Translations under genes and position numbers: made by a program | NCBI GenBank assembly: GCA_000002445.1 | Contig: CM000207.1 | Coordinates: 1,664,001 to 1,728,000, forward strand | DNA length: 64,000 nucleotides | From: Trypanosoma brucei | Lineage: Eukaryota | Direction: 5' to 3' | Notes under the pieces: model-generated | Database searches by the model: none | Told to the model about the DNA's origin: nothing | The model's input: the letters and a program-made list of their open reading frames with translations, nothing else | Part shown: piece by piece, positions 15,928 through 40,900 of the stretch | Layout of the letters: every line of letters starts with the position of its first letter | How positions within the stretch are numbered: the first letter of the stretch is position 1

Positions 15928-16443
15928 CACAGTTTGAAGTGAAAGAAATAATGTACAAAACGCGGAGCAGCGCGCAAAAAAAAAAAAGTCTCCGATGGAA
16001 AGGTCAAGCCTCCTCTGCTCTCAAATTCTACGGGCCAAGGGTGAATGTATCTGAAGAAGATTAAGCGATCACCCGCAACACCCCTTCAAACACGTTGAAC
16101 ACACCGAACAGTAAAACAACGCGGGGTAAATTCCACTGTCCCACGTAGGCTTGCAGTCCTGTACTCTTCGTAGAGTATGGGACTCTGCAGACAGCAGGCC
16201 GAAATGGAAGGAACTACAAGGAGAAAAACCTTCAATAATTCACACCTTAAGCACCCCGGAGATTGGCTTTTAACCTTTAAAAAGTAAGATCCCCACAGTT
16301 CAAAAAAAAAAATCCCCCTTGGGGAACGATATGGTGTAGTTGAAAAAGAAAAAAAGAAAGACAAAATGAGATTAAAGGGGAAGAAAGTAACTTGCTTGCG
16401 AAATGGCATCACCAAAGTCTGCGTAGCATTCCCCACGTTCCAA

Positions 16444-16470
16444 ACACACACGCACACACACACACACACA
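16444..16470. repeat. (CA)n dinucleotide repeat
   Basis: Read directly: acacacacgcacacacacacacacacac. Confidence 0.9.
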
Positions 16471-17446: not shown

Positions 17447-18109
17447 CTAGCACGCACAATCGCTTTTCTTTGTACTAGGCCTTTGTTGGCCCAATCTGAT
17501 GGATTGCGGCAACGCCACCCCCTCTTCCGCAGTAGCTTTCTTTGCTAGCGCAGCTTTACTTACCGTTAAGAACGCCTCTTCCACGCCCACATTTGCCTTT
17601 GCTGATGCTTCAAAGTATTGAATGGATCCCATCGTTTCCTCCCCAGCAGCTGCACCTAAAGAGGCATCACCACCTTCCCCATTTTTTAGTGATTCACACC
17701 AGGCTTCTGCCGTGCGACTGGTCACCTGCCGGCGCTCCGTCAGGTCCGATTTGTTGCCAATCAGCACACATTCCCGCTGGCCCGCTTGAGCGCGAAACTC
17801 TTCCAACCACGAATTAATGTGAGAAAAGGATTCCGAATCGGTAAGGTCAAACACAAGAACACATGCGTCAGCTCCACGATAAAAGGCAGAGCCAAGTGAC
17901 TGGAAACGCTCCTGCCCAGCTGTGTCCCATATTTGCAATGTGACAAGTTTGCCATCGATCTCCACATCCCTCGTGAGAAAATCTGCACCTATCGTCGCCT
18001 TGTACCGGTTGTCAAAGTTTTTATTCACATATTGATGCACCAACGCAGTCTTTCCGACACCGCTATCCCCAAGAATAATTATCTTCAGCAACTGTCGGTT
18101 TGGAGCCAT
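17447..18109 (-). CDS. RAB7: Rab7 small GTPase
   Basis: GDSGVGKT P-loop, effector region YKATIGADF, WDTAGQE, GNKSD and a C-terminal CAC prenylation motif. The sequence is highly similar to Rab7 family members. ATG at 18107-18109. Confidence 0.9.
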   Translation of the reverse strand: MAPNRQLLKIIILGDSGVGKTALVHQYVNKNFDNRYKATIGADFLTRDVEIDGKLVTLQIWDTAGQERFQSLGSAFYRGADACVLVFDLTDSESFSHINSWLEEFRAQAGQRECVLIGNKSDLTERRQVTSRTAEAWCESLKNGEGGDASLGAAAGEETMGSIQYFEASAKANVGVEEAFLTVSKAALAKKATAEEGVALPQSIRLGQQRPSTKKSDCAC

Positions 18110-18446: not shown

Positions 18447-18866
18447 CGTGTATATGTGTTTTTGCTTTTTTTTCCTTTTTTTTTGTGTGTTTCTCACCAG
18501 CACTTGGGTGATTTTGCTTCAATATGGGGCTAACGTCAAAGTAGTTTAAAGGCACGAGGGCAATTCAACAACGTACACCACACGAAAGTGATACCAAAAG
18601 GTGGGGAAAAGTGTTGATACAAAACCACAAGAAATAAATAAAGCAAAACAAGAAGAATGAGATGGAGGAAAATAATAATAATAACAATAGTAATAACAAT
18701 AGTAGTAATAATAATAGTATATATGGATTGCGTAAAGAAGAGAATTGGAACAAATCAAATAAAAGAAAGGGCGACGACAGCAGGTAGTCTCTGCCACCTT
18801 CCCTCTCACTTACATGAAAACACACACACACACACATGCATACGCATATAAGCGCAACCACCAACG

Positions 18867-18892
18867 GCAGAAGCAGCAGCAGCAGCAGCAGA
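18867..18892. repeat. (GCA)n trinucleotide repeat in an intergenic spacer
   Basis: Read directly: gcagaagcagcagcagcagcagcaga. Confidence 0.9.
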
Positions 18893-21800: not shown

Positions 21801-21951
21801 AACGAAAAGAACTCAAAGCGATACAAACATCTACGGCAACGCGAGACATGACTGGAGTGGAAACAGCAGCGGAATTGTCATTCTACGTTAACCTCCTCTC
21901 CTGTCTCGAACTTATAACAGCACCGCAAGTCAAAGCCATGCATACACACAC

Positions 21952-22962
21952 CTAAAACCCACGGAACTCCAATTGTTGTGATGGTGCTAACGGGGGCAAC
22001 CGCTTATCCCCACTCTCGGGATACGACTCAAAGTTACTTGTGTCGCCGGGGCTCTTCACTTTTACAGGAATGGGAGCGTGATAATGACGTCCATAGAGTT
22101 TCTCCCAATTCGCACCACGGAAGAATGGGTGATTCTTCACATCAGCTACGCCATCCTTCAGCGTGCCCAACCGTTTCGTGTGATCCGTTTGCAATAAACC
22201 CTTTACGAGATCCCGCGCACGGGAGTCAAACCAATTGGGGAATTTGAACCGGCCCGCAAGAATCTTTTCATACGTCCGAATTGGGGTTTCATCAAAAAAG
22301 GGAGGATGGCCAGCTATGAATTCATACAGCAAAACACCCATCGTCCACCAATCCACAGCCTTCCCATGTCCTTTGCTCTGAATTACCTCAGGTGCAAGAT
22401 ACTCAGGTGTCCCACATAACGTATAGGTACGATCCGTCACCTTCTTAGCAAAACCAAAATCAGTCACCTTGACGTGTCCCTTCCCATCAAGTAGCAGATT
22501 CTCAGGTTTCAAGTCACGGTAGATAATGTCCTTCGAGTGTAAATATTCAAAGGCCAACACAAGCTCCGCATGATAGAACTTCGCTACGTCATTCGGGAAA
22601 CGGCCTGCGGAACGAAGGTGAGTAAATACCTCACCACCTACCACAAATTCTAGAACAAAGTAGACGCGGTTCTCATCCTGGAAGGAACACATCATGTTCA
22701 CAATGAAGGGGTGTGACAACTCCATTAGAATTTGCTTCTCTTGGTTCAGGTGTTGTACCTGCTTCATCTTTAGTATCTCACGCTTCTTTAGACATTTTAT
22801 TGCATAATACTCCCCCCTGCTCTTCAGTTTTGCAATGCGCACGCGACCAAACGAGCCGGTCCCTAGCGTGTCACCCATTTCAAAGTCACTCAGCTTCCAT
22901 CCCGATGTGTCAGGTTTGGTAAACACATACGTTTGCGGTTCCGTCGACGTGGCTACAGGCAT
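21952..22962 (-). CDS. PKAC2: cAMP-dependent protein kinase (PKA) catalytic subunit, paralog A (~336 aa). The start is the internal ATG at MPVATSTEPQTY; the ORF-track upstream extension is low complexity.
   Basis: A full AGC-kinase catalytic core: GTGSFGRV, AIK, HRDLKPEN, DFG, GTPEYLAPE and a C-terminal FxxF-like tail (FRGF). From about codon 14 (FTKPDTSGWKL) onward it is near-identical to the second copy at 36593..37597. I assign PKAC2 versus PKAC1 by position relative to PRP8 and RAB7, from my memory of T. brucei chr9 gene order; that assignment is uncertain. Confidence 0.85.
   Translation of the reverse strand: MPVATSTEPQTYVFTKPDTSGWKLSDFEMGDTLGTGSFGRVRIAKLKSRGEYYAIKCLKKREILKMKQVQHLNQEKQILMELSHPFIVNMMCSFQDENRVYFVLEFVVGGEVFTHLRSAGRFPNDVAKFYHAELVLAFEYLHSKDIIYRDLKPENLLLDGKGHVKVTDFGFAKKVTDRTYTLCGTPEYLAPEVIQSKGHGKAVDWWTMGVLLYEFIAGHPPFFDETPIRTYEKILAGRFKFPNWFDSRARDLVKGLLQTDHTKRLGTLKDGVADVKNHPFFRGANWEKLYGRHYHAPIPVKVKSPGDTSNFESYPESGDKRLPPLAPSQQLEFRGF
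21955..22925. repeat. PKAC duplication unit copy A, a ~970-bp near-identical direct repeat
   Basis: The proteins are near-identical from FTKPDTSGWKL to the C-terminus. The antisense ORFs over this tract (21978..22247 vs 36580..36888) are also near-identical, showing the identity is at the nucleotide level and not just the protein level. The flanks diverge immediately outside the CDS. Confidence 0.8.
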
Positions 22963-23316
22963 CCGCACTACCAGTACCTGCTCAAGCTCTGTCAAAAAAG
23001 AATAATGTATAAATAAATGTAGACTTACGTATGCAACAAAATAGCTTATTTTTGTGGAGAAAACAAAAACGGAAAGAGGAGTAAAGGGTTCTTCGACAGT
23101 ATTCAAAATATAAAAAAGTAACACCAACAGCAGAAGAAGGAAAGGCAAAAGGGAGAACAAGAGTGCGCCCGTGACCTCCCTCCGATATTCATTGAAATTC
23201 TGTAACAATGTAAAAATTTGGGAGGTGTTTCCCCTTTAAACGACAAGCCGACCCCTCCACCACCGAGAGGGGGAAGAGATGAAGAATTATGCACCAACTA
23301 TGTTATATATTGCCTT

Positions 23317-24240
23317 TTACGCCATATTACCTTTAAGATAGCTGTAGAACCCCATTGTTAAAGCAGCGTTGGGCGCAGCAAATGTCACTCTGATCGGTAA
23401 GCCCTTCCACAGCGCACATACACCCTCGCTCTTAACAATAGCACACAATCCATCTAATAACCCCTTGTAACGGAAAGGAAATCCGTAAACGGCAGTTGGC
23501 TTTCCATTGACGGAGAGAACTGCCCGCTGTACCTGCAAGCGTGTCTTCACTAATTCCAGAGGGTTTGTTACGACGCAGGCGACAATATTCCCCATACCTC
23601 CTGCACAGAGTGAAGAAGAAAATGTTCCTAATGACATGTGCTCGTTGAGAACATTCTCAAAAACTTCGTAGCAACCAAAGTATACTGCCGAGTAGGGTCC
23701 GAAGGATGCCAATGTTGACCAATAACCCTTATATAAACCTCGCACACCTTCGTAGCGAGCGACAGTGCGGATGGCGTCCCAGTTGCCTTTGTATCGCCCT
23801 TCTACAAACGACGACTGCGCCTGCAGCCGTTCCTTCGTTACGTCAATAGGAACCCAAAAGATACAACTGACCGACTCGGCAAAGAGTCCACAAATAAGAT
23901 GAATAAATGAAGAAGGTATGGTGCTAAGAAAGGAAGAGGAATGGCTTGCACTCACATATCCCTGAAGGAAATCTCGAGACCACGTGTATGTTGTTAGATA
24001 CAGTGCAGTTCCCGGTGCAGAGCCAACAATCGCTACGCCCGCACCACGGTAGAAGGCACCTGGCCCTTCACGCCTCCAAATAGAACTCGCGACATGCCGC
24101 AGTGATCCCTTCGAATTTACATGAAGGGAACTGCTGCTATCTCCAAAGAAACCCGTGAAGGTCACAGTTTTAGCCGTATCGAGAGGATGACAAACCGCTC
24201 GGGCCATCACGCCAGCAAGAGCGGAGCATATTACATCCAT
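23317..24240 (-). CDS. Mitochondrial carrier family (SLC25) protein
   Basis: Three carrier repeats with the signature motifs PLDTAKT, PIDVTKERLQ and PLELVKTRLQ. ATG at 24238-24240. Confidence 0.85.
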   Translation of the reverse strand: MDVICSALAGVMARAVCHPLDTAKTVTFTGFFGDSSSSLHVNSKGSLRHVASSIWRREGPGAFYRGAGVAIVGSAPGTALYLTTYTWSRDFLQGYVSASHSSSFLSTIPSSFIHLICGLFAESVSCIFWVPIDVTKERLQAQSSFVEGRYKGNWDAIRTVARYEGVRGLYKGYWSTLASFGPYSAVYFGCYEVFENVLNEHMSLGTFSSSLCAGGMGNIVACVVTNPLELVKTRLQVQRAVLSVNGKPTAVYGFPFRYKGLLDGLCAIVKSEGVCALWKGLPIRVTFAAPNAALTMGFYSYLKGNMA

Positions 24241-27200
24241 ACTTGTGGCCTCTCCTAATGTGCCCTATTGCCTTGTAGTTTCCTCTCTTCCTTCCTTCTT
24301 TCTATTTGCGAGATGTCTGAAAAGGGGGACAAAAAACAAAGAAAAATTTAAAAAATTATGAAAGAGGCAATAAAAATAATAACAACACTAGTAATAGTAA
24401 CAACGATAGTAATAATAGCAACAATGATTATATAAGGGACAGAGGACCGCCAACACTCACTTATTACTGCCTCCCACAAACAACTAAGCGGATGGAACGA
24501 AGAAGAAGAAGAGTTAACCCATCGAATGACAGATGAGAGACAAAATTGTCCACCCCTTTGTACGCAGAAGAGAGTGCGGGCACTTGATGAAATAAATGAA
24601 AAATAACAAGAAATGAAGGACAACAATTCACCCATCCATCCCGACTTGAGGCCCTCAATTTATTTAACCCACCGCCGTTGAGTTCATAAATATAGGGATA
24701 CCCGGTAAAAAGAAGTAAAACGGAAGCAAGAAGGGGAAACCCTCCCTTTCATTCCTTCCTTCTTGTTTCTTGTTAGTCCTATTCCCTTTTTTTTCTTTTA
24801 TTTTTTTTTAATTTTCCTTTACATTGTGCTGAATTGAATTAGGAAGAAGGAAAGGGAAGGGAAAGGAAGGGGAAGGAAGAACATAAATTGTTGTGGCACT
24901 TTAAGCCACTCTGTTTAGTTTGCAGCCCCAACATCCTCTGTCCCTTTGTAAACTCCCCACTACGCACAAACACAGAATCAACTCGACACCAACAACAAAA
25001 CACTCAAAAAAAAAATACAAAAAAAAGGCAAGACCAGCGCCCCCGAGTGCCTCACCCCCTTTTGCGTGTGTTTGCGTGTGCGTTTTTTTTTTCTTTTTTG
25101 TTTTTCCCGTTTCTCTTTCTTTTTTTTTTCCTGTGTGTGTGTGTGTGTTTCTTTTTTTGCTGTTTTTTTTTTTTTGGCTCCCCCTCCCTCTCCCCAGAAG
25201 AAAAAAGAAGAAGAAGATGTTGACTCATCACATCGATTAATTCGGCGTTTTACCCTCCTTTACTACCTTTTTCACTTTGGATATCGCCCCAACTGAAATC
25301 AATTCTCTCAACGGAGAGAAAAACAAAAACAAAAAAACAAAAAAATTCCCTACCGCACGCACGCCTTTCCTCCGCTTTACCGCGGTCGCAAAGTTACACA
25401 AAACACAACAAATGGAACAAAACAAAAAAAAAGTAACCGCCTCCTCATATATCCCTTAAGAAGAAGTACGAAGGCATGAAGTGAATAGTTGGGAAGGAGG
25501 GGAGGGGAAATAGAGTGAGAAAAAGTAAAATGAAAAAAAAAATTAAGAAAGCTAAGACCAATGGAAAAGCAGTAACAAAAAGAAAGAAAAAAGAAGAGAG
25601 AAAGAAAAAAAAGAGAAAAAAAAGAGAGAGAGAAGGCTCCCAACCCCTTCTAAATGCCGGCCGGTGCAAATGCACATGAAAAAGAAAAAGAAAGTCATAA
25701 TGAACAGTTGCAGTTGAATGAGCAGCGCCAAGAAAATGAATGAAGTAAATGCATCACACGCGCACAAATATATAAATTAATTAATATATGTTCAAATAGC
25801 AGCATGCCTCACAATTGCCTTCGGAGCCGCCTTCAGGAAAAGGGGGAGAATGGAAGAAAAAGAAATTAAAAACAAAGGCGGGGAAAACAATCAAATAAAA
25901 TAGAAGAAAAAAAAAGAAGAAGTGATATTGTAACAACATGGAGAGAGAAGATAAGAGAAGATTTAAAAAAAGAAAAAGAAAAGAGGGATAAAAAAGAAGA
26001 GGAAAAAACTGAAGACGGAGAGACGAAAGAGAATTTTTTTTAAAAAAACAAACAAACAAACAAACAAAACTGAAATCAATAGAGAAAAAGACCCGCAACG
26101 CGTATAAAAAAGAAAAAGAAAAAGAAACTTTGATGGATGCAAATGCTATCAGCGCGGGGTGCGAATGTAGCGATGACTACTCATTGTCGTGGCGGACAGC
26201 ATCGCAACCTCTGCTGCTTCAGTTTGTTTGACTAATAGAAGAAAAGATGAAAAGATAGATTTTTTTTTAAAAAAAAAGAAACACTGCGGTGAAAAAGAAG
26301 TCATTAATATAGAGGCAATCACATCTCCACCTTCCGATCCTTAGGTTTCTGTTCACACACACACACACACATGCGCCCCAAAATTGAAATAACAGTTTGG
26401 ACGAAGGGGATGTGAAACATAATGAAAAAAAAAAAAGAAACGTACAAAAAACGTATAATTTTCTGCGGGATCACAATATTACGTTCTTTCAGTCTTTTGT
26501 CTTTTTTCTTCTAGCTCAGCTATTATTTTTTTCTTCCTTAAAAACTCTCTTTCTTCCTTTTTTTTTAATTCCTGATGCTTAATGCTTCTTTATTTATGTA
26601 TCTGTCACGTATCTGTCTCTTGATATTTATAAATTCTTTAGCATTTGAAAGCATTTGTTAGGAGCCCATCGTCCACATTGGCAACATCCCGCGCCATCCT
26701 TCACGCAGCAAACTGACAGATATATAAATAAATACAAGTAAATAAATAAACGCATATGTAAATATAAATATTGATATGTATCCGCCAGCACTATTTAGTA
26801 ACCGTGTCTGTGTTCATGCTACCAACAATAAACGCCCGTACACACGCCTCAACATCATTCCGCCAAGGCGATGAAAAGAAAAACAATAATAAAAGTAGAA
26901 TTGGAAGGAAAAAAAACAAACAAACAAACAAACAAACAAAAAGAAAGAAAGAACAGACAGAAAGGTAAAAGGTAAAAGAAGAGCAGCACAACGTTCTATC
27001 CGAGTAACGCCAACTTGTACATTTATGTACCTCCCATTGGTATCACTCAACAGCGACCATCGCGCATGGAAAAGGGGAGAAAGTAGTGAAGGAATGAGAG
27101 AGATTTCTTTTTTAAAAAAAAAAAGGAAGGGGAAAAGAACGAACTGCTAGTAAAATACCCCGCAGTGTAGCAGCAACGAAATCAGATCTGAAACAAACTA

Positions 27201-27759
27201 AAAGAGGCATACGTGAAAAAGAAAAAGTAACTCGTTGCATAAACGAATCGTTCGTCCTGCTCCCCTCACCGCAATTTTTCTCGCAAAAAAAAAAAAAAAA
27301 GTTGAATCCCACGCGTATTTTTTTTTAATTGTATAACTCTATAAAGGTAGATACAGTTATAAATGGGTAGTTGCTTTCTTTTCCTCTTTTTTGCTTTCTC
27401 TTCCTCATCCTTCCCCACACACCACGTCCCTCTCCCCACATCTCCTGTTTTAAACTTGAATGAGCGACTACGGTGTTATCACATGAAACAAGCAGCTCCT
27501 CATTATTAACGATAGCGCTGACAGAAAATATTTAAAACGAACATGAGGCCGCTACTCCCTCAAGTTACAAAAAAAAAATCAAAAACTCACCTTTAAATAG
27601 CGAGTTATAAAGACCCAGCCACCAAAGCATACGTGTGCACGCAAACCTGTGTGCAACAGACCCCCTCACTGACAGGATTTACCTGTTGAATGGTTCAAAC
27701 CCACAGCCACCGATTTGCCATAGAATCTCAAAGTTTTCTCCATCTCTCCATTTTGCAAG

Positions 27760-29397
27760 CTAGCGGCGCTGGTTGGGCTGCTTCGCCTGCTGCTGTTGTG
27801 CGAAAAGCACTTGTGTGCCGGGAGGAAAACCTGTGGCACCCACAGTGTATGGTGCCGTACCATCCGCGGGGCGGTAAAACATCATCGGTTGCTGAGCCTG
27901 ACTAGGCACAAAACCTGCAACATAATGGCCGGGCATGGCCGGCTGCGCGTAATACGGTGCTCCTTGAGCGCCACTCACAATTATTGGAACGGGTTGAGGG
28001 ACGCCAGTTTGACGGTGCTGCGGCTGCGGTGGAGCTTGCACCAGTTTTTGCATTTGTTGTGGTGCAACCTTCTGAACGGGAACCCCCCACGGCATTTGGA
28101 CAGGCTGTTGCTGCGGCCGTTGTTGCTGTGGGACATGTGCAGGTAGTTGGGTTGTCGACATTTGTGGCGGCGTCATATGGCCGGAAACCGAAAGTAACGG
28201 TGGGGCCCCTGTGACGGGTACAGCACTTCCTGGCATTTGAGACATGACCGCTGCCTGCGGCTGAGTCTGTGGGCGACCCAAACTTTGCTTCACCTGCATG
28301 AGTAACTGCTGCTCCAGGGCTGTTGCCTCAATAGGTTTACTTTCCACCTCCGGTTGCCTGCTCACCTTCTGCTCGCTAATGAGTCTCTGCTCCAAATCGT
28401 GAGCGTTCCACGTGCGGGGTTGGTTTGACGCCGATGTCTCGGTGGGTTGTGTAGCTGGCGCACGGGCACTCGTAGCAGCACCCGCTTCCACCGAAGGCGC
28501 TGCGGGTACCGAGTGCAAAACTGCTGGTTGCATCGATGGCTGTGTTGGCACCGCGCCCGCATGCTGGGTCGGTGCTGTCGACGGAACACCTAAGGACAGA
28601 CTACCGGTCAAAAGTGAATTCATACCTACATTGGCGGAAGGATTCTTACGTTCAAGCGCCGCATCAACGCCGGTGGGCTTCGAAGCTTCCACATTGTTCC
28701 ACACAACGTTACCGCTCGCTGGGACCATGGACGGCAAGGCCCACGGGTCTTTGACCTGATTCAAAGAGGCACTTGTCAGGGGTTCTGATATTGCCTGCAC
28801 CAGAGGAGCAGAGGTAGGGTTTGTATCCTGGAAACCAGAGTTTGCCCCAGAGAAGAAGCGTGACTTGGCTACTTTCTTCCCCCCCTCACCACTTGGTGCT
28901 ATGCTAACCATCAACCGTTCTATCTCATCGTCAACCTCTGCCTTTACTTCAGTTCTGGAGGGGGAAGAGGGACCCCATTTGTTGGTGTCGTTTTTGCCCT
29001 CATCCTTTGAAGAGGCTGCAGCGTCACTCCTTTGCTTCTCCCTCTCCATGGTTTCCTGCAGTGCCTGCTTCTTAATGGCATTCCGCTCCAACTCATACTT
29101 GTACCCCTCTTCGAATGCTTCCTGATCCCTGCTTCCCCTCCAAGAACGGGATGGGGGAGCAAAGCGTTCGCTGTTTGTTGCCCGCTTCGATGCTGGCCCA
29201 AGCGCTCCATTTTTCGAGTCGGATGACTTTTGACCGGTGGCGTCGTGGCGGGTTCCATCCGGCGAAGAGGACTGCACGGGGCACTCCGTTTCGATTATGC
29301 TGAATTTCTGTAGTACCTCCTCGCTCAAGGTGAATTCTTCTGGTCTCGGTGCAAGTGAGAGAAGTTCAGGGCGAGTGTATCGAATTGTAGTTCTCAT
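27760..29397 (-). CDS. 4EIP: eIF4E-interacting protein-like (4EIP-like) with an N-terminal YXXXXL-phi eIF4E-binding motif. The start is the ATG at MRTTIRYTRPELL; the codon at 29401-29403 is TTG.
   Basis: The N-terminal YTRPELLSL fits the canonical eIF4E-binding motif Y(X)4L-phi. The rest is Q/P/A/S-rich low complexity (QQQRPQQQPVQMPWGVPVQKVAPQQMQ...), typical of kinetoplastid 4EIP. Its position between the two PKAC copies matches T. brucei chr9. Confidence 0.7.
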   Translation of the reverse strand: MRTTIRYTRPELLSLAPRPEEFTLSEEVLQKFSIIETECPVQSSSPDGTRHDATGQKSSDSKNGALGPASKRATNSERFAPPSRSWRGSRDQEAFEEGYKYELERNAIKKQALQETMEREKQRSDAAASSKDEGKNDTNKWGPSSPSRTEVKAEVDDEIERLMVSIAPSGEGGKKVAKSRFFSGANSGFQDTNPTSAPLVQAISEPLTSASLNQVKDPWALPSMVPASGNVVWNNVEASKPTGVDAALERKNPSANVGMNSLLTGSLSLGVPSTAPTQHAGAVPTQPSMQPAVLHSVPAAPSVEAGAATSARAPATQPTETSASNQPRTWNAHDLEQRLISEQKVSRQPEVESKPIEATALEQQLLMQVKQSLGRPQTQPQAAVMSQMPGSAVPVTGAPPLLSVSGHMTPPQMSTTQLPAHVPQQQRPQQQPVQMPWGVPVQKVAPQQMQKLVQAPPQPQHRQTGVPQPVPIIVSGAQGAPYYAQPAMPGHYVAGFVPSQAQQPMMFYRPADGTAPYTVGATGFPPGTQVLFAQQQQAKQPNQRR

Positions 29398-30811
29398 TGT
29401 CAACCCTACCTTGATTCGATCACTAGTTAGTTCTCTGTTAATTTCTTTTTTCTTTTTTTTTCCTTTTTTGGAGGGGCAATTCTTTTTCCTTTTTGTTTGC
29501 CTAAACCCGTTCCCCTATATCGCTATTCAGATACAATGTTATACCACTTCTCTGGGTTTATCACACTGCTATTATTAGTAACAGAAATAGGTTCTTCTTA
29601 TTCCTTTCACCCGAAAAAGATAAATAATCAACCCAGAGGACGTCCCTGATCCTGTCGTGTGGGTCGCCGCTGATCCTACTTTTTTTTTCTTCTTTCACAA
29701 AAATTCCCCTTCACCTGATTTTTTTTAATATTTCACCTTTTTGTCGGTGATTGATTGTTTTTTTTTAATTTTTGTTGTCTTGTTGTTGTTGTTGTTGTTT
29801 TTTTTTTTTGCTTAATTTCTTTTTTCTCTTTCAATTTAACTTTTTTTTCCTTTTCTTTTTGTTTCTATCTTTTTAACAGTAAAAATAATGATTTAACAGG
29901 AGAGCGAAAATTATCTTTCCTTCTTTTCGTGGAAAGTTCGGGTCAAAGTAAGTTTCGTTCAGTTAGGCGATCAGACAATCGCTTGGCGGTATACTTTAAA
30001 AAAAAAACGTTTGCGTTGAGGAACTGAGTCCAGTAAGAACACACATAAATACAAAGAACAAGTTAATGAAGAAAGAAAATGGAAGATGAAAGTGCAAATA
30101 TGAATGTAAAGATGGTGTGCGAACAGCAACAAAATGGTGGAAACGAAAAAAGAAAAGAAAAAGAAATGTGGGGTGATAGTGTATATACAAATGGAAACAT
30201 ATCAGGAAGGGGGAAAAAATTGCGACAATAGTAGTAAGAGTATTGGCGCCCAGATGACACACCCGACCACATACTTATTGATTACTCCGCTGGTACCGCA
30301 AACGCACAGACGCGCACCAGTGTATGTTTTATTACGCGCAAGGTTTCCTTTTGACATCCTCTTTTTTTACGACCGCACCACCACACACGGGTCGCATGGT
30401 AACAGTTAATACCCAATAATCGGCACTGCACTCGCGGTAACTCTTGAAAAGAGGCGGGCCGCGGCACGGCCGCAAGGTGCGTATTTAACGCGGTAGTAAA
30501 AAGGGGGAGAAAAGGGAGAAAAGCAACAGAACGATGTGCCTCACGTGCAACTCGCTGCCTAAGCGGGAGAGAGAAGCGTTCCCGGAAACACGATACTGGA
30601 GCAGCCTCCTCCAGGTTGGAAAGGAGAAAAGATTCAGTAAATAAACAAGAAGCGCAATAGAGAAATGAAAGATAGATAGATAGAAAGGGTATGTTAAATT
30701 TCATTTCTATATACTTTGCCGCATATCCAGTGATTCACTCCATTCTCTTCTTTCACTTCATCGCCATTACCGTCCCTGCACAACCGCAACCACAACTACA
30801 ACCACACCACA

Positions 30812-32797
30812 TTACAACACAATGGGATGATCCGCCGTCCCCAACCGCAAACCTCTGCCAACATCACCATCCTGCGACGCCCTACTTCCATAGTCTCCAA
30901 CGTTACCCCCCACCCTCCCTCGTCTGTAAACAACAAACGCCTCCCCGTCATCGGACGAGTCGGCGCCAAGTTCCGCCAAACCAAAAAAGGAATCGCTGGA
31001 CCCGCCGCATGCAACTACAGGCTTGAGTGGTTTATTTACATCATTGCTGCTCTCGTCGTCATCGTCAAGAACGACATCTACAACACCACTAACACTCTTC
31101 TTAGGTACCCACCGAAATGGAACATAGTCTTCATCCGTTTCCGCTGTGCTTGCCGTGTGAACTGCAGCTTTTGCCTCCCTGTCGTTCCTGACAAGTTGAA
31201 GGTACGCGGGGCATTTCTCACCTGCTTGTTGCAAGCACCGCAGCAACACGGTGTCAACGCGGATGTCACGGGGTGCAAGCGGTGAGTCACAAAGTGGGCA
31301 GTTCCAGTAACATCCACTGTGACAACCCTGAAGAAAGGAGCGACAGTCAAAGCATTGAAGGTGAGCACAATGGGCACCACGGATTGGAATGCTAATGCGT
31401 GCTTGAGAAATGGGACACTTCGTTGTGATGACGGGGTTGTCCACTACCATCTCATCTTTTGACATTTCCTCGTCCTCTAACACGCTACGGTACATGGCGT
31501 ACAAACTAGCATCGCGCATATTCTGCGGGTTGCATAACGGCGTAACGATACTATTCATCACCTCATCTTGTGGTACCAACTGAACTACCAACAATGCCAC
31601 CTGACTAACGTACTCCTTTGAGGTCACAACAAATCCAAGCTCCTGAGTGTGGCAATTTCTATTCAAAAATTGTGTTATATCCAAAGGAAGAAGGGTTTTG
31701 GTTACTTCCTTCCGCCGCTCGGGCCACCGCCGCCTCCACATTGTCATGACCGCTTGGCCGTTCACTGTTACCGCAATTTCCTTTATTACCGGCCACGACA
31801 TGGGAATAAATGGCGGCCGGAAGGGTACCACGTGCAGACGAAGCCGTCTTGACGCCACTCCCTCCAAATACTGCTGAGGAACTTCAAAAGAGTGATTGGC
31901 GCTACCAAAACACAGCTGCGTTTTCATTACTACGTGTAGCACACGGTGGAAAGGGGAACTGACTTCGTTTATGGCTTCAACGGGAAGGTTGTCGTCAAGC
32001 GGCAGAGACAAGATTTCAACAGCTGCATTCCCCACCCCACGTGGTAGTTGGTATTTCAAGCGATGTCTTACTGGAGCTGCGTTATTATTAGATGTGGAAG
32101 GGGGGAAACTGGTTGACGCCTTCGCACCCGATGGCTCATTGTGCTTAAGCGGTGTAACTGTCGGTGGTGGTGGTGGTGGTGTAGTTGCGGAGTGAGCATC
32201 TTTCACTTGTGTAGCACCACCTCCAGCATCTTTCCGCGAAGCAAAGAAACAGTTTAATGCTGAAGCTCCCTGAGCCGCCAAATCCTTCATTCGGCTTTTG
32301 TTGTCTACCGTCGCCGCAAGCCTCAATTCCCCATGCTCCTCCAAAATATCCCTCAGTGCGGCCATTAGTTTATTTAGCTCATTTCTCCGATAGTACTTGT
32401 ATATGTCACCCGACTTGAATTCACGCTGAAACACGCGCATACTAAGCGGTTTGCCAACCACTGCCCTCTTAAGACGTAACCACACCTCACCACTAAAACC
32501 TCCGCCACATTGCGAGCTGTCGTCGCCGCAGTCACCGTCACTGAAGCCTTCAGCAACAGCGCTGGCCTCACTACCGTTATAACTACTGAGAGTACTGCCT
32601 TCATCGGCACATTCACTATGCCTGCTTGAAGTTGTTGCACTGGTTCCCGCAGTGCTTTCACCGCCAGTGAGGAAACCCACCACGCATTCATTACTGGGCG
32701 TGGGTGACAAATACACACGGCTTCGCTTCCGCAGAGAGTTGTCTCCATTGTCAGTTTCGGAGTCGGCACGTTTTCTGGTTGCAGGTCGGATCACCAT
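30812..32797 (-). CDS. SIZ1: SP-RING (Siz/PIAS-type) SUMO E3 ligase. The start is the ATG at MVIRPATRKR; the ORF-track M at 32818 is GTG.
   Basis: The SP-RING/MIZ zinc finger CPISQARISIPIRGAHCAHLQCFDCRSFLQGCHSGCYWNCPLCDSPL matches the PIAS consensus CP..........R...C.H.QCFD............CP.C. There is a poly-proline stretch TTPPPPPPTVTP, encoded by (GGT)n on the plus strand at ~32165-32185. Confidence 0.75.
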   Translation of the reverse strand: MVIRPATRKRADSETDNGDNSLRKRSRVYLSPTPSNECVVGFLTGGESTAGTSATTSSRHSECADEGSTLSSYNGSEASAVAEGFSDGDCGDDSSQCGGGFSGEVWLRLKRAVVGKPLSMRVFQREFKSGDIYKYYRRNELNKLMAALRDILEEHGELRLAATVDNKSRMKDLAAQGASALNCFFASRKDAGGGATQVKDAHSATTPPPPPPTVTPLKHNEPSGAKASTSFPPSTSNNNAAPVRHRLKYQLPRGVGNAAVEILSLPLDDNLPVEAINEVSSPFHRVLHVVMKTQLCFGSANHSFEVPQQYLEGVASRRLRLHVVPFRPPFIPMSWPVIKEIAVTVNGQAVMTMWRRRWPERRKEVTKTLLPLDITQFLNRNCHTQELGFVVTSKEYVSQVALLVVQLVPQDEVMNSIVTPLCNPQNMRDASLYAMYRSVLEDEEMSKDEMVVDNPVITTKCPISQARISIPIRGAHCAHLQCFDCRSFLQGCHSGCYWNCPLCDSPLAPRDIRVDTVLLRCLQQAGEKCPAYLQLVRNDREAKAAVHTASTAETDEDYVPFRWVPKKSVSGVVDVVLDDDDESSNDVNKPLKPVVACGGSSDSFFGLAELGADSSDDGEAFVVYRRGRVGGNVGDYGSRASQDGDVGRGLRLGTADHPIVL

Positions 32798-35700
32798 GAC
32801 GATGCTCCAAAAACACACAGAAACGCCTCAGACTCGAAAAGAAAAACAAAAAGAAAATATAGTACCCCCAGGTGTTGGTAGCAGAGCTATTAACACTAAT
32901 GCACTGCGGCACCGCCTCCTTTCCCTCCACCTGCTACGAAATGTCTTCTTCCACTCTTATTTTTGTTTTTTTTGTTCTCCACCTACCCTTTTTTTTTCGC
33001 TTTTAAGCCCTATATGATATTAAAGCTAGAGGAGCACAAACTGGCTCTTAGCAACGCTAATATACCCTTCCCCCAGAAGAAATCATGAAAGCAACAGATA
33101 ATAATATACGTGTATATATGTGTGTAAATATATGTATATACATATAAACAAATATATACGCATCCATGTGCGTACGTGTGCAATTGCATACAGAAAGAAA
33201 AAAGATGCACACAGAGGAAGTAAGGACAAATGTCGGAAGAAAAGAAAACGAATGTTTGTCCCCTGCACACATCGCGAAACCACCAAAGGCGCTTTTTAAA
33301 CTTTCATGCGCTGCGCAGCCGCATCTCCCACAGCTCTACCCGCCAACGAAAGCGGGACAACACAGGCAGAAAATAGAGGGGATGGTAGAGTGATTTGTGA
33401 CATGTCGAGCACCTTGCGTCAAGCTCCCCAAAAACATGTCACATTCCAAGCGGTAATAAACGATCAGCAAAAGAATTATCATTAGAAGAAAAAAAGGAGT
33501 AATAGTATATAAACAAAACGAAAAATAAAAGGAAACAGAAGATAAAGAGAATGGAGACGTGTACAAGTTATTTCCAAAGGCTACGGCCCACACTTGGGAT
33601 CAGCGAGCAGATCCTCTGGAGTTATCTTTTTCTTTCCTTTAAACCTTTTTGTTGTCTTGTTTTGTTTTGGTTTTGGTTTAAACGGTATATATACATACAC
33701 ACACAAACACATACATAAATATAAACGATTTTTCTTTCTTTTCTCCCCCTTTTTTTATTAGTTCCTTCCTTTCTTCTCCATAATAAAGGGAAAGAGAGAG
33801 GTGGGCCGGCATGCGTACGTGAGGGTATCATTTGGTGCAACTCCTACACATTTTGTGTCGAGTCATTCACTACGATGTTAAATAGCTCAACCCTGCAGCG
33901 GGGTGGCGGAGAGGGGGGAAAAAAGAGTAAATGGAAGAGGTGCTGGAAAAATATCGACGAAACCAAAACAAAAAAAAGAAAAGAAAAGGAAAAAAAATAG
34001 TGGTACGACGCAGTGAAGTCAGCTAAAACCCCGAGTAACCTCACGCTCTAAACATTTTTGTCTCGTTTGGTGACGAGTCATTTCATACACTTCCTTGACG
34101 CACCGTGCACAAGAAGAGACATAGGGCATAAACTTCACGAATAGTCCATTCATAAACAACTTTTGCTTCCTTCTTTTTCTTCCTCTTCTTGTAAAAAAAA
34201 AAAACACTTTTCTTTTTCTCCCTTTTCCCATTAACCCGCATTTACTCCCGGTGTCGTTATCTTTCCGTCACCCTTCCATTCCCTTCACCGTAACCTCACC
34301 ACACATACACATTTTTCCCTCTTCCTTCTCCTCACGTCTTCCTTTTTTTTCTTTTCTTTTTCTCTTCGTTTTTCCCCTTTCCCTTTCCCCTACCGCCCTC
34401 TTCCCCCTTTTTGCACTTCACATATCCGGGATAACATGGGGAACGACGAAAACATTAATAATTACAGCTGCCCTCAGTCACATATTCGGCTTATCTTCGC
34501 CTCTGTGCCTGTCCTTTGTCATCTTTTTATTTATTTTTCTTTTCTTTTTTTTTTAATGTGTGTATATGTGGAATAGGACTTACATCATGCCGCGAGTATA
34601 ACAAAGCTTACCACGTACACGCGAGAAAAAAAGAAAACAACAGTAACAATAACAATAACAATAACAAGCAAACAAGCACGTCACAGTGCGTGCCTTCCTC
34701 TCTCTCTCTTTTCAGGCTAACAAACAATCAGACAGACACATACATATGTTTATTTATATATTTATATATTTAATTTGTACACACACAGACACACATACTT
34801 GGAAACATCCAGTTGTAATACCATCTCTCAGCCGCTGCAAACATCTCAACTCCCTGCACCTGTTACTTCCTTTCATTATTATCACTTTTTTTTTTGAACC
34901 TCTCCTTTTGTCCATTTTCTCTTTTATCCTAATTTATGTATCCCTGTCGTCTTCTTCAGTTTTTTCTCTCTTAAATGTTCAAATGGTGTTCAAACGCTTT
35001 TCCCCTTCTTCCCTTTTCCTTCTTTTATTTTACGATTCTAATCATCATATTCTTCTAAAACAAAAATGGGGGGATTTCAGACAGGAGGGATAAAACAACA
35101 ACAACAACATTTTTTCTCCTTTTCCCTACTTCGTTGCGCGTTCACGCGGTCGGACAACTCAGCAGTGCGCAATTAAACAATAACAAAAAAAAATCACTCC
35201 CCTCCAACCTTTTCAGCATCTATCAAATAACCCACACAAGGGAAAAAACAAAACAAAACGGTAGAGTCAGTGAAAAAGACACGGATAGTAAACGAAAGCA
35301 AAGAGAGGTGCAGAAAATAGGCGAAAAGAAAAAAAACATGGAAGATGTGGTGGAATGGAGCAACATTACCTTTCTTCTTTTTTTTTTCCCTCCCCCCCAC
35401 TCCCACTCACACTTCACCTCCTGCAATCACAATAGTAAGAGGTGGGTGGAGAAGCAGCCGCATTTCGCACGGAGGCGCGCCTCCAACCATACATAAAAAA
35501 TACCCATACACACACACACAAAAAAAAAAAAAGAAGCGACATTGAAACGGCACTCGCATTTTTACTCATGGGGTGTCATTTCTCTTTTTCCATTTATTAT
35601 TTTCTTATCGCTTCTGCTTTATTATTCATTCCCTCCACTTGATACCACACCCGAGTCACTTTCTCAACAATACCGGCGGCAGCATTTCTTCTCTCCACAC

Positions 35701-36592
35701 CTCCACATGTCTTCACTCCTTTCATTCTTTCCTTTCTCCTCCCAAAAACAAAGCAAACAAACAAACATAGAGACCCGTGTGCACACTTAAAGGAACAACA
35801 ACAACAACAATTACAACAATATCAACAAAAGGGTAAACATAAAGAGAAAAGAAAAAAAAAAAGATCGACGATGTAACGATGGGAAGGGAAAAGGTTTGAG
35901 GTTACAACATGGAGAAGGAAAATTCCACCATTAGAAAACACAACCTCCTTCCTTCTTCTCCACTCCCTTCTTCCTTTCCCATACGTCATTATTCAGCCCC
36001 ATCCCACCCCCCTCTCTCCCTCTTCCTCTTTTCTCTCTTTTTATCCCTTTCTCCCGGGAAGCATAAATAAATAAAACAAACCGGGGGAAAAAAAAATGAC
36101 ATGACAAATTTAAGGGTGTGGAAATACATTTTTTTTCTTAAGAAAAAAAAAGCAAAAATGAAGAACCGAATAGAAAACAAGTGTTAAAAGAGAAGAAAGG
36201 AAGGCTGTCGCCACAGCACCATCGTGGCAACAGAAAAACAAATCAAAAAACCCACCGCAACGTTCGGGAGGAGTAACAAATTATCATCTAAAGCGAAAAA
36301 AAAAGGTATTAACGTGAAAAAGGAAAAGGAAAGAATGACAGAAAGCAGTGAAAACCAAGAAAGGGAGGGAAGATAGAAGAAGAATGTAAAACATAATAGT
36401 AGAATACTTCACCGTCGCCTAGAGAGAATAGGATCCCAAACACAACCATAGTAAAATATTTAACTAAAGGTTCATCCACACTCCCCTAACTATTTCACGA
36501 ATTTATGCGTGTGTGCTTATTACCTTCTACTCACGCGTTTTAACATGCGATTGCAACAACGGTACCGGAGCATACGGTTGTGCAATGCACCT

Positions 36593-37597
36593 CTAAAAAC
36601 CACGGAATGCAACCTGTTGCGAAGGGGTTAGTGGAGGAGAACCCTTATCTCCACTCTCGGGATACGACTCAAAGTTACTTGTGTCGCCGGGGCTCTTCAC
36701 TTTTACGGCAATGGGGGCGTTATAATGACGTCCATAGAGTTTCTCCCAATTCGCACCACGGAAGAATGGGTGATTCTTCACATCAGCTACGCCATCCTTC
36801 AGCGTGCCCAACCGTTTCGTGTGATCCGTTTGCAATAAACCCTTTACGAGATCCCGCGCACGCTCATCAAACCAATTGGGGAATTTAAGCCGGCCCGCAA
36901 GAATCTTTTCATACGTCCGAATTGGGGTTTCATCAAAAAAGGGAGGATGGCCAGCTATGAATTCATACAGCAAAACACCCATCGTCCACCAATCCACAGC
37001 CTTCCCATGTCCTTTGCTCTGAATTACCTCAGGTGCAAGATACTCAGGTGTCCCACATAACGTATAGGTACGATCCGTCACCTTCTTAGCAAAACCAAAA
37101 TCAGTCACCTTGACGTGTCCCTTCCCATCAAGTAGCAGATTCTCAGGTTTCAAGTCACGGTAGATAATGTCCTTCGAGTGTAAATATTCAAAGGCCAACA
37201 CAAGCTCCGCATGATAGAACTTCGCTACGTCATTCGGGAAACGGCCTGCGGAACGAAGGTGAGTAAATACCTCACCACCTACCACAAATTCTAGAACAAA
37301 GTAGACGCGGTTCTCATCCTGGAAGGAACACATCATGTTCACAATGAAGGGGTGTGACAACTCCATTAGAATTTGCTTCTCTTGGTTCAGGTGTTGTACC
37401 TGCTTCATCTTTAGTATCTCATGCTTCTTTAGACATTTTATTGCATAATACTCCCCCCTGCTCTTCAGTTTTGCAATGCGCACGCGACCAAACGAGCCGG
37501 TCCCTAGCGTGTCACCCATTTCAAAGTCACTCAGCTTCCATCCCGATGTGTCAGGCTTGGTAAACAGTTGGCCATCACCAGTGGGAGTTGTCGTCAT
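36593..37597 (-). CDS. PKAC1: cAMP-dependent protein kinase (PKA) catalytic subunit, paralog B (334 aa)
   Basis: The N-terminus is MTTTPTGDGQLFTKPDTSGWKL, with ATG at 37595-37597. The rest is near-identical to paralog A, with a few substitutions (KKHEILK vs KKREILK; RLKFPNWFDERARD vs RFKFPNWFDSRARD; HYNAPIAVKV vs HYHAPIPVKV; PPLTPSQQVAFRGF vs PPLAPSQQLEFRGF). It lies adjacent to PRP8. Confidence 0.85.
   Translation of the reverse strand: MTTTPTGDGQLFTKPDTSGWKLSDFEMGDTLGTGSFGRVRIAKLKSRGEYYAIKCLKKHEILKMKQVQHLNQEKQILMELSHPFIVNMMCSFQDENRVYFVLEFVVGGEVFTHLRSAGRFPNDVAKFYHAELVLAFEYLHSKDIIYRDLKPENLLLDGKGHVKVTDFGFAKKVTDRTYTLCGTPEYLAPEVIQSKGHGKAVDWWTMGVLLYEFIAGHPPFFDETPIRTYEKILAGRLKFPNWFDERARDLVKGLLQTDHTKRLGTLKDGVADVKNHPFFRGANWEKLYGRHYNAPIAVKVKSPGDTSNFESYPESGDKGSPPLTPSQQVAFRGF
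36596..37565. repeat. PKAC duplication unit copy B, a ~970-bp near-identical direct repeat
   Basis: See copy A. The 5' ends (the first ~12-14 codons) and the UTR flanks are unrelated. Confidence 0.8.
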
Positions 37598-37942: not shown

Positions 37943-40900
37943 CTACGCCATCAGGTTCTCAAGATCTGCCATATCAATTGTTGCTTCTTCTTCCGTTAAT
38001 CGGGCAAAATTCAGAAAGTGGTCTGGACGGTGTGTTGCAAAAAAGAAAAATTGTGGAGTGTCCACACGCACATCAAACGTCGTGTCTTCACGCCACGTTG
38101 CCCCTCTGAAGGTATGATTCCATCCATTGTCTGTTGGTACAAGAAAAAAGCCCTGAAGCTCCGTCGACAGTGTCACACGAGCCGGAATTACATGCAACGG
38201 TGGCACTTCCGTGGGCTCGCGTTGAAGTGCATGGGAATATTCTTCGAGAGCCCACGATATTCCCTCACGCGTGGTAGTGTAACAGCGGATACCAATCCCA
38301 TCCTGCGAAACCCCGACGACAACTGTTGTGAGTCCCTCCGTTTGCAGCCCCTCATTGCACGCCAGTAGTCTGCCGTGGATGGCAACATCTCTGGAGTGAA
38401 TTGAAGGTTCCCCGCCACTGCAACGAAGGACACCAAGAAGGGAAAGATGATTCTCGGTCAAGGTGGGGTGGTCATGAGGAATACATGACGGTGTCGTGTA
38501 CTCAACAGCAGAACTCTTTTGAGGGGGCACCATAATGCACAACACCTCCTTAACATTGGGGGAATCAGGAAGAGTCTGCCCAAAAAGGTACGCACAGAAC
38601 TGGGCTTGAACATCAAAGCACGGAAACAAAATTTTCAACAGCTCCTGAGGAAATATAAGTTGGTCGCTGCTTCCCGTCACACCAGAGTGATCAATCTCAA
38701 CAGTGGTACCTTCACCGAACACAGTAGCATTAGCAAGTGAGCGTGCCCGCCAGTTGCTCGCGGATGTCGAATTACCGAAGTCGAATGCCGCTTTGACCCT
38801 CTTTTTAGCTGTTTCGCCCGACTTCGTTACCACATCAATTGTGTGTTCTTGCACCAACTTAGTGCGCTTCATCTCCTCCAATTCCTTCATCTCTTCCTCT
38901 TGAATCTCAACCGTGGTCATCTTCTTGCCAAGAAGAATGTCCTTTTTTTCCATCTCGGTGAACTGGTTCGGACTGACATTCATCCGACGGGCCGCGTCGG
39001 CAATTATCATCTCCTGCAGACGCACAGACACAGCCTCCCACTCCTCCCGAGTGTAGGTGGGCCAAAAATGTGAGTGGTGGACTTCTACATGAAGGTCTGG
39101 CTCGAGCGTCTGACGCGTGCGACTGAGATTCACGTGGTATCCACGCAGTATGAGATTTAGTAAATTAAAGCATGTTGCAGGTTGAAACTGCCGCAGCCAG
39201 TCATCATAAAGGCAGAATTCCCACCCCTTACTTTCCGTGGCCGAAATCCGCAGATCGGCCAAGCGACTGTGCCGCAGGACCATTGGGACCGCAAGGTTTA
39301 GATCACTCTGTCCAATAATTATGTTTGGGTAATCCAGTATAAGCATATTGTGGAGAGTTTGTCGGAAACGACTTCGAGTCACAATGAGTTTCCCGGGTCG
39401 CTGACTCGCGGGCACACTGCGTAGCCAGGAGGCAATCTCCTCTGCTGCCTTCTCACGAGCAAGCTTTGTGCGCCGCTTCTGACCAGCAAAAACACTTTTG
39501 TGAACAATGCTGAGTTTCAGGTTCCCTGTTGCCGGTTCAAAAATAAGTACGGCACCATTTTCAGACCTAAACTTCCTGCCACCCTCAGCAGTGGGTTGTT
39601 CACTTGTGACATATGTAGCGCTGTCATCAACGATCCAAGTGCGCATTCCTTCCGAGAATAACTCCGCAATGTTTGTCACCGACAACCCGGCCTCCGTTGG
39701 GGCCGAGCTAAAAAGCTGAAGGTCGCGCTTCATACGCTCACGCAGAGTATTGAGTGCTATATTGTGTCGTATAATGGCTGTCATAAGTTTCATCATCAGC
39801 GGTTTGAGTCGAGGTACCCAATAACCGAATGCTGAATGACAGTTGTAGGCTAAATCGATGGCCACGACAATACCAGCAGGGAAAGGATACATTTTGGCAG
39901 AAGAATATTCGTAAAATCTACTTCTTGTATACTCCGCGATATTGTGACTGTCGTAATTACCCCAACGCAGTTGGACGTCAATCCAGTACTTGCTTGTCGT
40001 GTGAGCCCTATATTCGTCACCAGTTTCGTCAGAAAGAACCGTCGGCTTCGATGTAACAGGCCAGCGTGACGTTGACGCCATGACAATGTCGGGTGCAGAA
40101 CTTGTGTACGTGTAAGATTTTTGCGGGTGCTGCTGCTGCAATGTGACGGATGCCGCATCTAATTCCACCATCATGTCCTTCAACTTGCTTGCGATGTCAT
40201 TCACTACTGCCCCATGACACTTTTCCCATAGGGAACCGCTGAAAATCTTAATGAGCGACTTCTTAATCGTTTCAAGCTTGCCGCACATAAACACTCCGGT
40301 GGTATCAATTTTCGTCTCAAACCCGGCTTGGACGTCCGACCTATTGATTGTCGGACACCACCACAGCGCAAAGCGCCTGTTAGGAACATTTGCCAAACCG
40401 GCACGCTGCTGTTTGGCCAACTTGCTATCCTTTTTGGAGTTTTCAAAACCTCCAGCGCGGTTAAACTCAATACCCTCCCAGGATGGGAAACCCGTCCCCC
40501 TAAATAGACTATGCTCAAGAATGGCCTCCACACCACCAAGTGCGATGTTTGTGTCGACACGATACCTCTCCAGTACACCCCCACAAATGTTGCCATCGTG
40601 CTCTTGGTGGAACCACCAATTCTTCAAGTACTTCCCTGCAAGGTAACGTTGGAACTCCATACGACACCGAAATCCTTTGTCAAACTGGAAAAGCTTTGCG
40701 TGACGCGAAAACAAAACCCGAATTCGCGGGACGCCTTTGTTGATGATATGCTCTATATCGTCAATTGAGAGCCGCGTTCCGGCAGCTTTGGCTTCACGAT
40801 CCCGCATGTTGAACTCTGTCCACGCCTTAACGCTCTCCCGTACCTCCGTTTCCCACGGGGTATAGTACTGCAAAATATTGGGAATAGGAATGTTGTCGGC

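Follow-up and report, generated by a model that had tools for sequence, protein, structure and literature searches.

Ancient dispersed genes for the PKA catalytic subunit in Trypanosoma brucei are probably kept alike by gene conversion limited to the coding sequence

Introduction

The stretch of Trypanosoma brucei DNA analysed here (the window, 64,000 nucleotides) contains the chromosome 9 locus of PKAC1 and PKAC2, two genes for catalytic subunits of protein kinase A (PKA). An earlier note, made from the sequence alone, had read the pair as tandem paralogs that are kept near-identical by ongoing gene conversion confined to the catalytic core, with three unrelated genes captured between them. 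The results below support an old duplication, the copies of which evolve in concert through interlocus gene conversion restricted to the coding block, a reading to which we assign a probability of about 0.9. Positions refer to the window unless stated otherwise.

Results

The PKAC1/PKAC2 locus

Both coding sequences (CDS) are located on the minus strand.

36593..37597, minus strand: copy B, PKAC1, 334 aa, starting with MTTTPTGDGQL; Pfam Pkinase at residues 26-279 (E 1.4e-71)
21952..22962, minus strand: copy A, PKAC2, 336 aa from the ATG at 22962, starting with MPVATSTEPQTYV; Pfam Pkinase (E 1.1e-71)

The translation of copy B was identical over the whole alignment to the TREU927 protein annotated as 'PKA catalytic subunit isoform 1', and that of copy A was likewise identical to the 'isoform 2' PKA catalytic subunit of TREU927. 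The corresponding gene IDs are Tb927.9.11100 for PKAC1 and Tb927.9.11030 for PKAC2 (PMC6440977). Both copies encode a complete eukaryotic protein kinase domain as judged by Pfam, and both end in FRGF, the FxxF hydrophobic motif of the AGC C-terminal tail, the conservation of which in these kinases has been reported (bioRxiv 10.1101/2023.11.08.566240). The Pkinase_C match was weak in both copies (17.5-18.2 bits, under the cut-off of 20.9). In T. brucei, PKAR pulls down PKAC1, PKAC2 and PKAC3 (PMC6440977).

Along the coding strand, the genes follow the order PRP8, PKAC1, an SP-RING/MIZ protein, a Q-rich protein, a mitochondrial carrier and PKAC2, with PKAC1 directly downstream of PRP8 and PKAC2 downstream of the carrier. 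The two PKAC copies are 14,641 bp apart in direct orientation, in agreement with the same-orientation genes at 14.6 kb recognised before. The open frame of PKAC2 continues upstream of the start codon, from 22962 to 23208, an extension unused in the TREU927 annotation. The PKAC genes of T. b. gambiense DAL972 are annotated at 398 and 393 aa. The additional N-terminal residues (about 60) are translated from the open frame farther upstream (10001-11197 in retrieved-locus coordinates covering the gene), a region in which the copies are unrelated and which TREU927 leaves unused; these start-codon calls look over-extended.

Nucleotide identity between the two copies

The two genes were compared by blastn together with flanks of 1,500 nt (E <= 1e-3). 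A single high-scoring segment pair (HSP) was obtained, which aligned 22925..21952 of copy A with 37566..36593 of copy B at 97.1% identity, and there was no other match at this threshold within the 1,500-nt flanks. The homology begins at nt 32 of copy B (codon 11), equivalent to nt 38 of copy A (codon 13), and extends a few bases past the stop codon; the sequences beyond both ends are unalignable. The pairwise alignment thus bore out the abrupt start of identity, its end near the stop codon, and the unrelatedness of the first ~12 codons and of both flanks, as had been proposed. The segments distinguished within the two genes were as follows.

37567..37597, minus strand: first 10-11 codons specific to copy B, not alignable to copy A
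22926..22962, minus strand: first 12-13 codons specific to copy A, not alignable to copy B
36890..37566, minus strand: recent conversion tract of copy B, CDS nt 32-708, with 2 differences in 677 nt (99.7% identity)
22249..22925, minus strand: recent conversion tract of copy A, partner of 36890..37566
36593..36889, minus strand: older mosaic 3' part of copy B, CDS nt 709-1005, with 28 differences
21952..22248, minus strand: older mosaic 3' part of copy A, with an identical patch (22081..22221) and a diverged end (21952..22080)

The ungapped count gave 30 differing positions in 974 nt, with 28 of them in the last 297 nt and two in the preceding 677 nt (binomial P 8e-13), and the longest identical run extended over 532 nt (permutation P < 1e-5). 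The substitutions are therefore clustered toward the C-terminus, as noted previously, and the uniform divergence that had been named as speaking against localised conversion was not seen. The two differences in the first part comprise one silent change and one at nt 176 that gives H59 or R59, and the synonymous (dS) and nonsynonymous (dN) divergence over its 225 codons were as low as 0.007 and 0.002, respectively. The 3' part consists of 27 nt with six differences (nt 709-735), an identical patch of 141 nt (nt 736-876, 36722..36862; P < 1e-5 within the tail) and a terminal segment with 22 differences in 129 nt, or ~83% identity (nt 877-1005, 36593..36721). The dS value was 0.305 over the last 98 codons and rose to 0.77 over the last 42 codons, where dN/dS was 0.11. 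Synonymous differences alone numbered 1 in 148 sites in the core and 16.5 in 66 sites in the 3' part (Fisher P 2e-8), and because the contrast persists at these sites, constraint at the protein level cannot explain the clustering.

The near-identity over ~970 bp is thus made up of a very recent 677-nt tract and an older, patchy 3' segment. A block of this length (974 nt) indeed exists, although its identity is not uniform, being a mosaic of a 99.7% core and an end of ~83%. The most recent tract stops short of the end of the kinase domain (residues 26-279 in Pfam), at codon 236, and historically the whole CDS has been converted, so that conversion is not confined to the catalytic core as the earlier note had supposed.

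Four consecutive bases differ at 36863-36866 / 22222-22225 (PKAC1 codons 244-245), reading TGAG in PKAC1 and CTCC in PKAC2, and this change gives E245 in PKAC1 and S245 in PKAC2. Residue 245 is S in PKAC2, T. congolense, T. vivax and Bodo, A in T. cruzi, T. melophagium and T. grayi, and G in Leptomonas and L. major, with E found only in PKAC1. The pattern resembles either a multi-nucleotide change or the transfer of a micro-patch from a donor sequence.

No sign of GC-biased conversion was found, either as an excess in GC content at third codon positions (0.51-0.52 for PKAC and 0.46-0.55 for the neighbouring genes) or at the sites that differ between the copies. Conservation of the antisense open reading frames (ORFs), which the earlier note had pointed out, held for one pair (22713..22922 and 37354..37563, both 69 aa) but not for the other (89 aa at 21978..22247 vs 102 aa at 36580..36888), and it was rejected as a trivial by-product of the nucleotide identity.

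Synteny and age of the duplication

The genes between the two copies and the upstream anchor were assigned as follows.

23317..24240, minus strand: mitochondrial carrier protein (intervening gene 1); Pfam Mito_carr (E 4e-61)
27760..29403, minus strand: Q-rich protein of 545/547 aa (intervening gene 2); no Pfam family; 4EIP position, Tb927.9.11050
30812..32797, minus strand: SP-RING/MIZ SUMO E3 ligase (intervening gene 3), at the TbSIZ1/PIAS1 position, Tb927.9.11070; Pfam zf-MIZ (E 1e-20)
37943..45154, minus strand: PRP8 ORF, upstream synteny anchor of copy B; Pfam PRP8 domains on the orthologous neighbours

The Mito_carr and zf-MIZ matches and the 547-aa ORF without a family agreed with the carrier, SIZ1-like and 4EIP-like genes named before. 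The product of 30812..32797 was 100% identical to a database protein, and Tb927.9.11070 is given as the SIZ1 gene ID in the literature (PMC4256477). The name 4EIP for 27760..29403 was derived from the order of gene IDs in the literature; the gene at this position in all the other species also lacked a family (546-815 aa). The mitochondrial carrier occurred at the matching position in T. cruzi, T. melophagium, T. vivax, Leptomonas and Bodo, and Pfam PRP8 domains were detected on the neighbouring genes of T. cruzi, T. melophagium, L. major, T. vivax, T. grayi and Leptomonas.

Orthologs of SIZ1, the carrier and PKAC served to retrieve the orthologous loci. The exact six-gene order PRP8-PKAC-SIZ1-4EIP-carrier-PKAC was present in T. 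cruzi YC6 and T. melophagium. It was also found in T. vivax across two overlapping loci, and in Leptomonas pyrrhocoris with one extra gene (TPR-kinase-HECT) ahead of the second copy. PRP8-PKAC-SIZ1 was seen in L. major, for which two PKAC proteins are on record. In the free-living outgroup Bodo saltans (CYKH01000770.1), the layout was looser, with a PKAC copy on each side of a block of SIZ1, a 705-aa protein and Mito_carr (1518-2365 and 17070-18080 in retrieved-locus coordinates). The downstream copy is complete and follows carrier-SNF2-Kelch, while the copy upstream of SIZ1 is split by a gap of 300 N (1874-2173) and annotated as a 143-aa fragment; its assembled parts were 99.4% and 100% identical to the downstream copy.

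As both slots bracket SIZ1, 4EIP and the carrier in Bodo as well as in the trypanosomatids, the two-copy layout is older than the divergence of Bodo and the trypanosomatids. The copies are dispersed rather than in tandem as formerly described, with three single-copy genes between them. These genes were not captured later, contrary to the earlier note, because the SIZ1-4EIP-carrier block between PKAC copies is the ancestral layout, already present in Bodo.

The interval from the carrier to the downstream PKAC was variable. No gene was called there in the Trypanosoma loci examined, while it holds a 1438-aa TPR-kinase-HECT gene in Leptomonas (12479-16795) and SNF2 and Kelch genes in Bodo (11344-16791; retrieved-locus coordinates). 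In the 3.8 kb between PKAC1 and SIZ1 of the window (32818-36593), no minus-strand ORF of >=90 aa was found; this is presumably a long 3' untranslated region (UTR) of PKAC1 or an intergenic region. The gambiense annotation places a 132-aa gene in the same interval. A kinase-like stretch at 5567-5908 on the minus strand (~30% identity to PKAC residues 127-231) belongs to an unrelated kinase gene. Dozens of A/G-rich low-complexity stretches of the plus strand (repeat families D1-D3) are scattered through the intergenic regions from 18600 to 35900. On the coding strand they are polypyrimidine tracts, which we take to be like those that serve as trans-splicing and polyadenylation signals in trypanosomes.

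Concerted evolution in every species sampled

Divergence within and between species was estimated by the method of Nei and Gojobori. Between the two copies of one species, dS was 0.092 in T. brucei, 0.037 in T. cruzi, 0.018 in T. melophagium, 0.047 in T. vivax and 0.090 in Leptomonas. Between species it was >1 or saturated, with dN of 0.04-0.15, and 63-72% of the synonymous sites of the T. brucei core differed from those of other species. Paralogs within a genome were thus closer to each other than positional orthologs between genomes, synonymous sites included.

The neighbour-joining tree of 23 proteins placed the two copies as sisters in 9/9 species (T. brucei, T. congolense, T. vivax, T. 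cruzi, T. melophagium, L. major, Leptomonas, Lotmaria and Angomonas) with bootstrap values of 0.81-1.0. By the criterion of Jackson (2007), whose cladistic and dS criteria were applied to the pair, this sisterhood of conspecific copies identifies concerted evolution. No retained orthology was found in the tails or N-termini, and C1 of L. major was no closer to C1 than to C2 of Leptomonas. We infer concerted evolution because the copies are each other's closest relatives in each species while both slots are conserved. The view of the earlier note that the duplication is old and the copies homogenised was thereby strengthened, with conserved slots, nine sister pairs out of nine, and within-species dS of 0.02-0.09 vs saturation between species.

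Tract ends and lineage-specific termini

The homology block between the two copies was limited to the CDS in every species examined, and reached at most ~30 nt into any flank.

T. brucei: from nt 32 to the stop codon
T. cruzi: from nt 25 to 32 nt beyond the stop codon
T. melophagium: from 1 nt before the ATG to 27 nt beyond the stop codon
T. vivax: from exactly the ATG to nt 979
Leptomonas: from nt 186/153, after N-terminal extensions, to 7 nt before the stop codon
Bodo: from the ATG to the stop codon

The boundaries were sharp throughout this comparison of orthologous loci, and their positions varied by lineage. T. brucei, T. cruzi, T. congolense and Leishmaniinae have N-termini that differ between the copies, but each of T. 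vivax and T. melophagium has one and the same N-terminus in both. The C-tails have diverged in T. brucei and T. vivax, while T. congolense (compared through its two proteins), T. cruzi and T. melophagium have tails that match completely or almost completely. Relative to the tail of T. congolense, the two T. brucei tails differed to about the same extent (14-15 of 44 residues by our count on the alignment), and the divergence of the T. brucei tails would accordingly be lineage-specific rather than ancient, as far as can be judged from these sequences.

Because the tract ends vary between lineages, the paralog-specific termini are not a conserved feature. The paralog-specific N-termini described for T. 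brucei do exist in this species; it is their status as a general feature of the pair that did not hold, and a conserved function for them seems unlikely. The lineage-varying escaped parts fit passive, homology-limited conversion and argue against an ancient conserved function of the termini. All nine phosphosites reported for PKAC1 of the bloodstream form (S302, T306, S307, S311, Y312, S315, S320, T324 and S326; PMC2716717) fall within the diverged C-tail, at codons 293-334 (36593-36721). Two of them, S320 and T324, correspond to L and A in PKAC2.

Strain-level signals

Several differences between strains suggested that conversion may still be ongoing, although these signals come from the consensus sequences of assemblies. 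The DNA-level comparison included one copy only for T. b. gambiense and for the other T. cruzi strains. At codon 59, TREU927 carries H in PKAC1 and R in PKAC2, T. b. gambiense carries R in both copies, and T. equiperdum carries H in both. The PKAC1 gene of T. b. gambiense contained six consecutive diagnostic bases of the PKAC2 type at nt 978-990. This patch is bounded by PKAC1-type sites at 975 and 999 and followed by the PKAC1 3' flank, which implies a size of 13-23 nt. In the core, the two T. brucei paralogs were no further apart (0.3%) than PKAC1 of TREU927 is from PKAC1 of gambiense. In T. cruzi, eight sites were common to both YC6 copies and unlike PKAC2 of two other strains, and YC6 PKAC2 showed three differences from its own paralog over nt 100-900 vs nine from PKAC2 of CL Brener.

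The T. equiperdum scaffold (CZPT02001110.1) displayed the impossible order PRP8 - carrier - PKAC2 - SIZ1. Its runs of N (2617-2626 and 6111-6120 in retrieved-locus coordinates) sit exactly at the edges of the PKAC repeat, and the gene order is a scaffolding error caused by the repeat. This locus was dropped from the strain comparison as mis-joined, and only its PKAC2 piece was usable.

Discussion

Two-copy synteny, sisterhood at synonymous sites, sharp boundaries, a mosaic tail and an apparent shuffling of variants between strains were all observed by comparison, and they are most readily accounted for by recurrent non-crossover interlocus gene conversion between direct repeats that lie 14.6 kb apart in one polycistronic unit. 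We consider this mechanism very probable. One copy would serve as the template for the other during homologous-recombination repair, the pathway as well as the direction of the events being what we infer from the patterns. Conversion would start and spread only where the copies remain alike, namely in the protein-constrained CDS, and since the untranslated flanks have long been without any similarity, the tracts would stop at the ends of the CDS or a little within them. The weakly constrained N-terminus and C-tail would be converted least often and drift apart, which could explain why the differences cluster at the ends and why the boundaries vary by lineage. If the direct repeats recombined by crossover or single-strand annealing, SIZ1, 4EIP and the carrier would be lost, so only non-crossover products presumably persist, with deletions probably removed by selection.

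Some points weigh against this reading. No conversion event has been directly observed, and all of the evidence is comparative. The strain signals derive from consensus assemblies of diploids, in a repeat that confuses assemblers, and the gambiense micro-tract and the H59/R59 shuffle could represent a chimeric consensus or allelic variation. Of the earlier proposal of ongoing conversion, it is thus conversion that the comparative pattern upholds, whereas its ongoing nature depends on these strain signals. Furthermore, orthology is usually retained by duplicates that divergent non-coding sequence keeps apart (Jackson 2007, PMC1855330), a generalisation from which the PKAC pair departs, as its flanks are divergent and yet it has evolved in concert in every lineage sampled.

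Selection might also set the limits of conversion, in that the boundaries are held since PKAC1 and PKAC2 need distinct N-termini, C-tails and UTRs for stage expression, localisation or phosphoregulation. The dS of 0.77 over the last 42 codons indicates a long escape from conversion, and the dN/dS of 0.11 there indicates constraint on both tails, in which the PKAC1 phosphosites, including the two replaced in PKAC2, are located. In Leishmania, the active sites of PKAC1 and PKAC2 are identical, yet the two proteins are not extracted alike by detergent and their knockouts have different phenotypes (bioRxiv 10.1101/2023.11.08.566240). However, T. vivax and T. melophagium have the same N-terminus in both copies, nucleotide homology in Bodo starts from the ATG, the (near-)identical tails of T. 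congolense, T. cruzi and T. melophagium make the escaped parts lineage-specific, and the gambiense patch would show that the tail is convertible. We therefore regard boundaries held by selection as possible but doubtful. This explanation concerns the boundaries only, and would add to homology-limited conversion rather than replace it. A regulatory role of the distinct UTRs and tails is conceivable in this connection; PKAC1 is presumably the isoform mainly of the bloodstream form and PKAC2 that mainly of the procyclic form. Nothing citable on stage-specific expression of PKAC1 and PKAC2 was found in the library searched.

An independent recent duplication in each lineage, or an assembly artefact making the copies look identical, appeared very improbable. 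Low divergence between paralogs is what a young duplicate would show, and such repeats do disturb assemblies, but in at least six genomes assembled independently of one another, the copies are found in the same two slots and their unique flanks are unrelated. Repeated insertion of a CDS alone into the same slot is not credible, and recent duplication was ruled out by the conserved second slot. Collapse of the copies during assembly was likewise ruled out, since in six independent assemblies unique flanks and diagnostic differences at both ends tell them apart. Homogenisation of a tandem array by unequal crossing-over was also rejected, as the flanks are unrelated beyond the CDS and three single-copy genes stand between the copies. 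Least credible of all was purifying selection alone on a strongly constrained kinase core, which agrees with the high conservation of the core protein between species but was ruled out by the contrast at synonymous sites (one difference in 148 within T. brucei, 63-72% differing between species) and by the strain-specific silent changes of T. cruzi that both copies have in common.

Concerted evolution and gene conversion are the norm for duplicates and tandem arrays in T. brucei (Jackson 2007, BMC Evol Biol 7:54, PMC1855330). The PKAC pair resembles those arrays in that conspecific duplicates cluster despite orthologous gene order and conversion is deduced from mosaic variation. It differs in that the arrays are contiguous and tandem, with units that usually include intergenic or UTR sequence, whereas the PKAC copies are 14.6 kb apart and have no flank in common. 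The term 'protein kinase A' was not found in the main text of that paper (PMC1855330). It has already been published that the PKAC isoforms are 'highly similar', non-tandem with intervening genes and variable in their N-terminal extensions, and that the synteny extends over Leishmania, T. brucei and T. cruzi (Bachmaier 2019, PMC6440977; bioRxiv 10.1101/2023.11.08.566240). These two studies deal with the same genes but contain no analysis of nucleotide identity, tract boundaries, synonymous divergence or gene conversion. The designations '1' and '2' vary between species (bioRxiv 10.1101/2023.11.08.566240), which is what concerted evolution predicts. No paper containing both 'PKAC2' and 'gene conversion' was present in the library searched, and no explicit statement of CDS-limited interlocus conversion between PKAC1 and PKAC2, or of its extent from Bodo to Trypanosoma, was found in the literature searched.

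A close parallel is the copy correction of dispersed duplicate genes such as the yeast paralogs from the whole-genome duplication (Pyne 2005; Sugino & Innan 2005), in which the CDS reportedly stay near-identical for very long while the flanks are unrelated, and escape from conversion is said to begin at the tract edges. Unlike the yeast paralogs, the PKAC copies lie on the same chromosome, in direct orientation and within one polycistronic unit, where crossovers would delete the genes between them. Their concerted evolution, reaching back to the ancestor of Bodo and the trypanosomatids, also appears to have lasted longer than the yeast cases. The locus had been characterised before, and the process is a known one, of which the pair is a new, clean and unusually long-lived example.

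More speculatively, the two dispersed copies might have been kept identical in the catalytic core since before the Bodo/trypanosomatid split by selection for one PKAR-matched enzyme expressed from two UTR cassettes in a promoter-less polycistronic genome, with individual lineages freeing the C-tail for paralog-specific phosphoregulation (S320 and T324 in T. brucei). We consider this rather unlikely, more so than the holding of the boundaries by selection.

For the study of these kinases, the names PKAC1 and PKAC2 are not statements of orthology across species, and phylogenies will always group the proteins by species. RNA interference, antibodies and short reads separate the isoforms only by the UTRs and by the first ~12 and last ~45 codons, and assemblers break at the PKAC repeat. 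The pair provides a natural example of homology-limited conversion between non-adjacent genes of a polycistronic unit. Isoform-specific function could reside in few residues, namely those of the C-tail, including the phosphosites S320 and T324.

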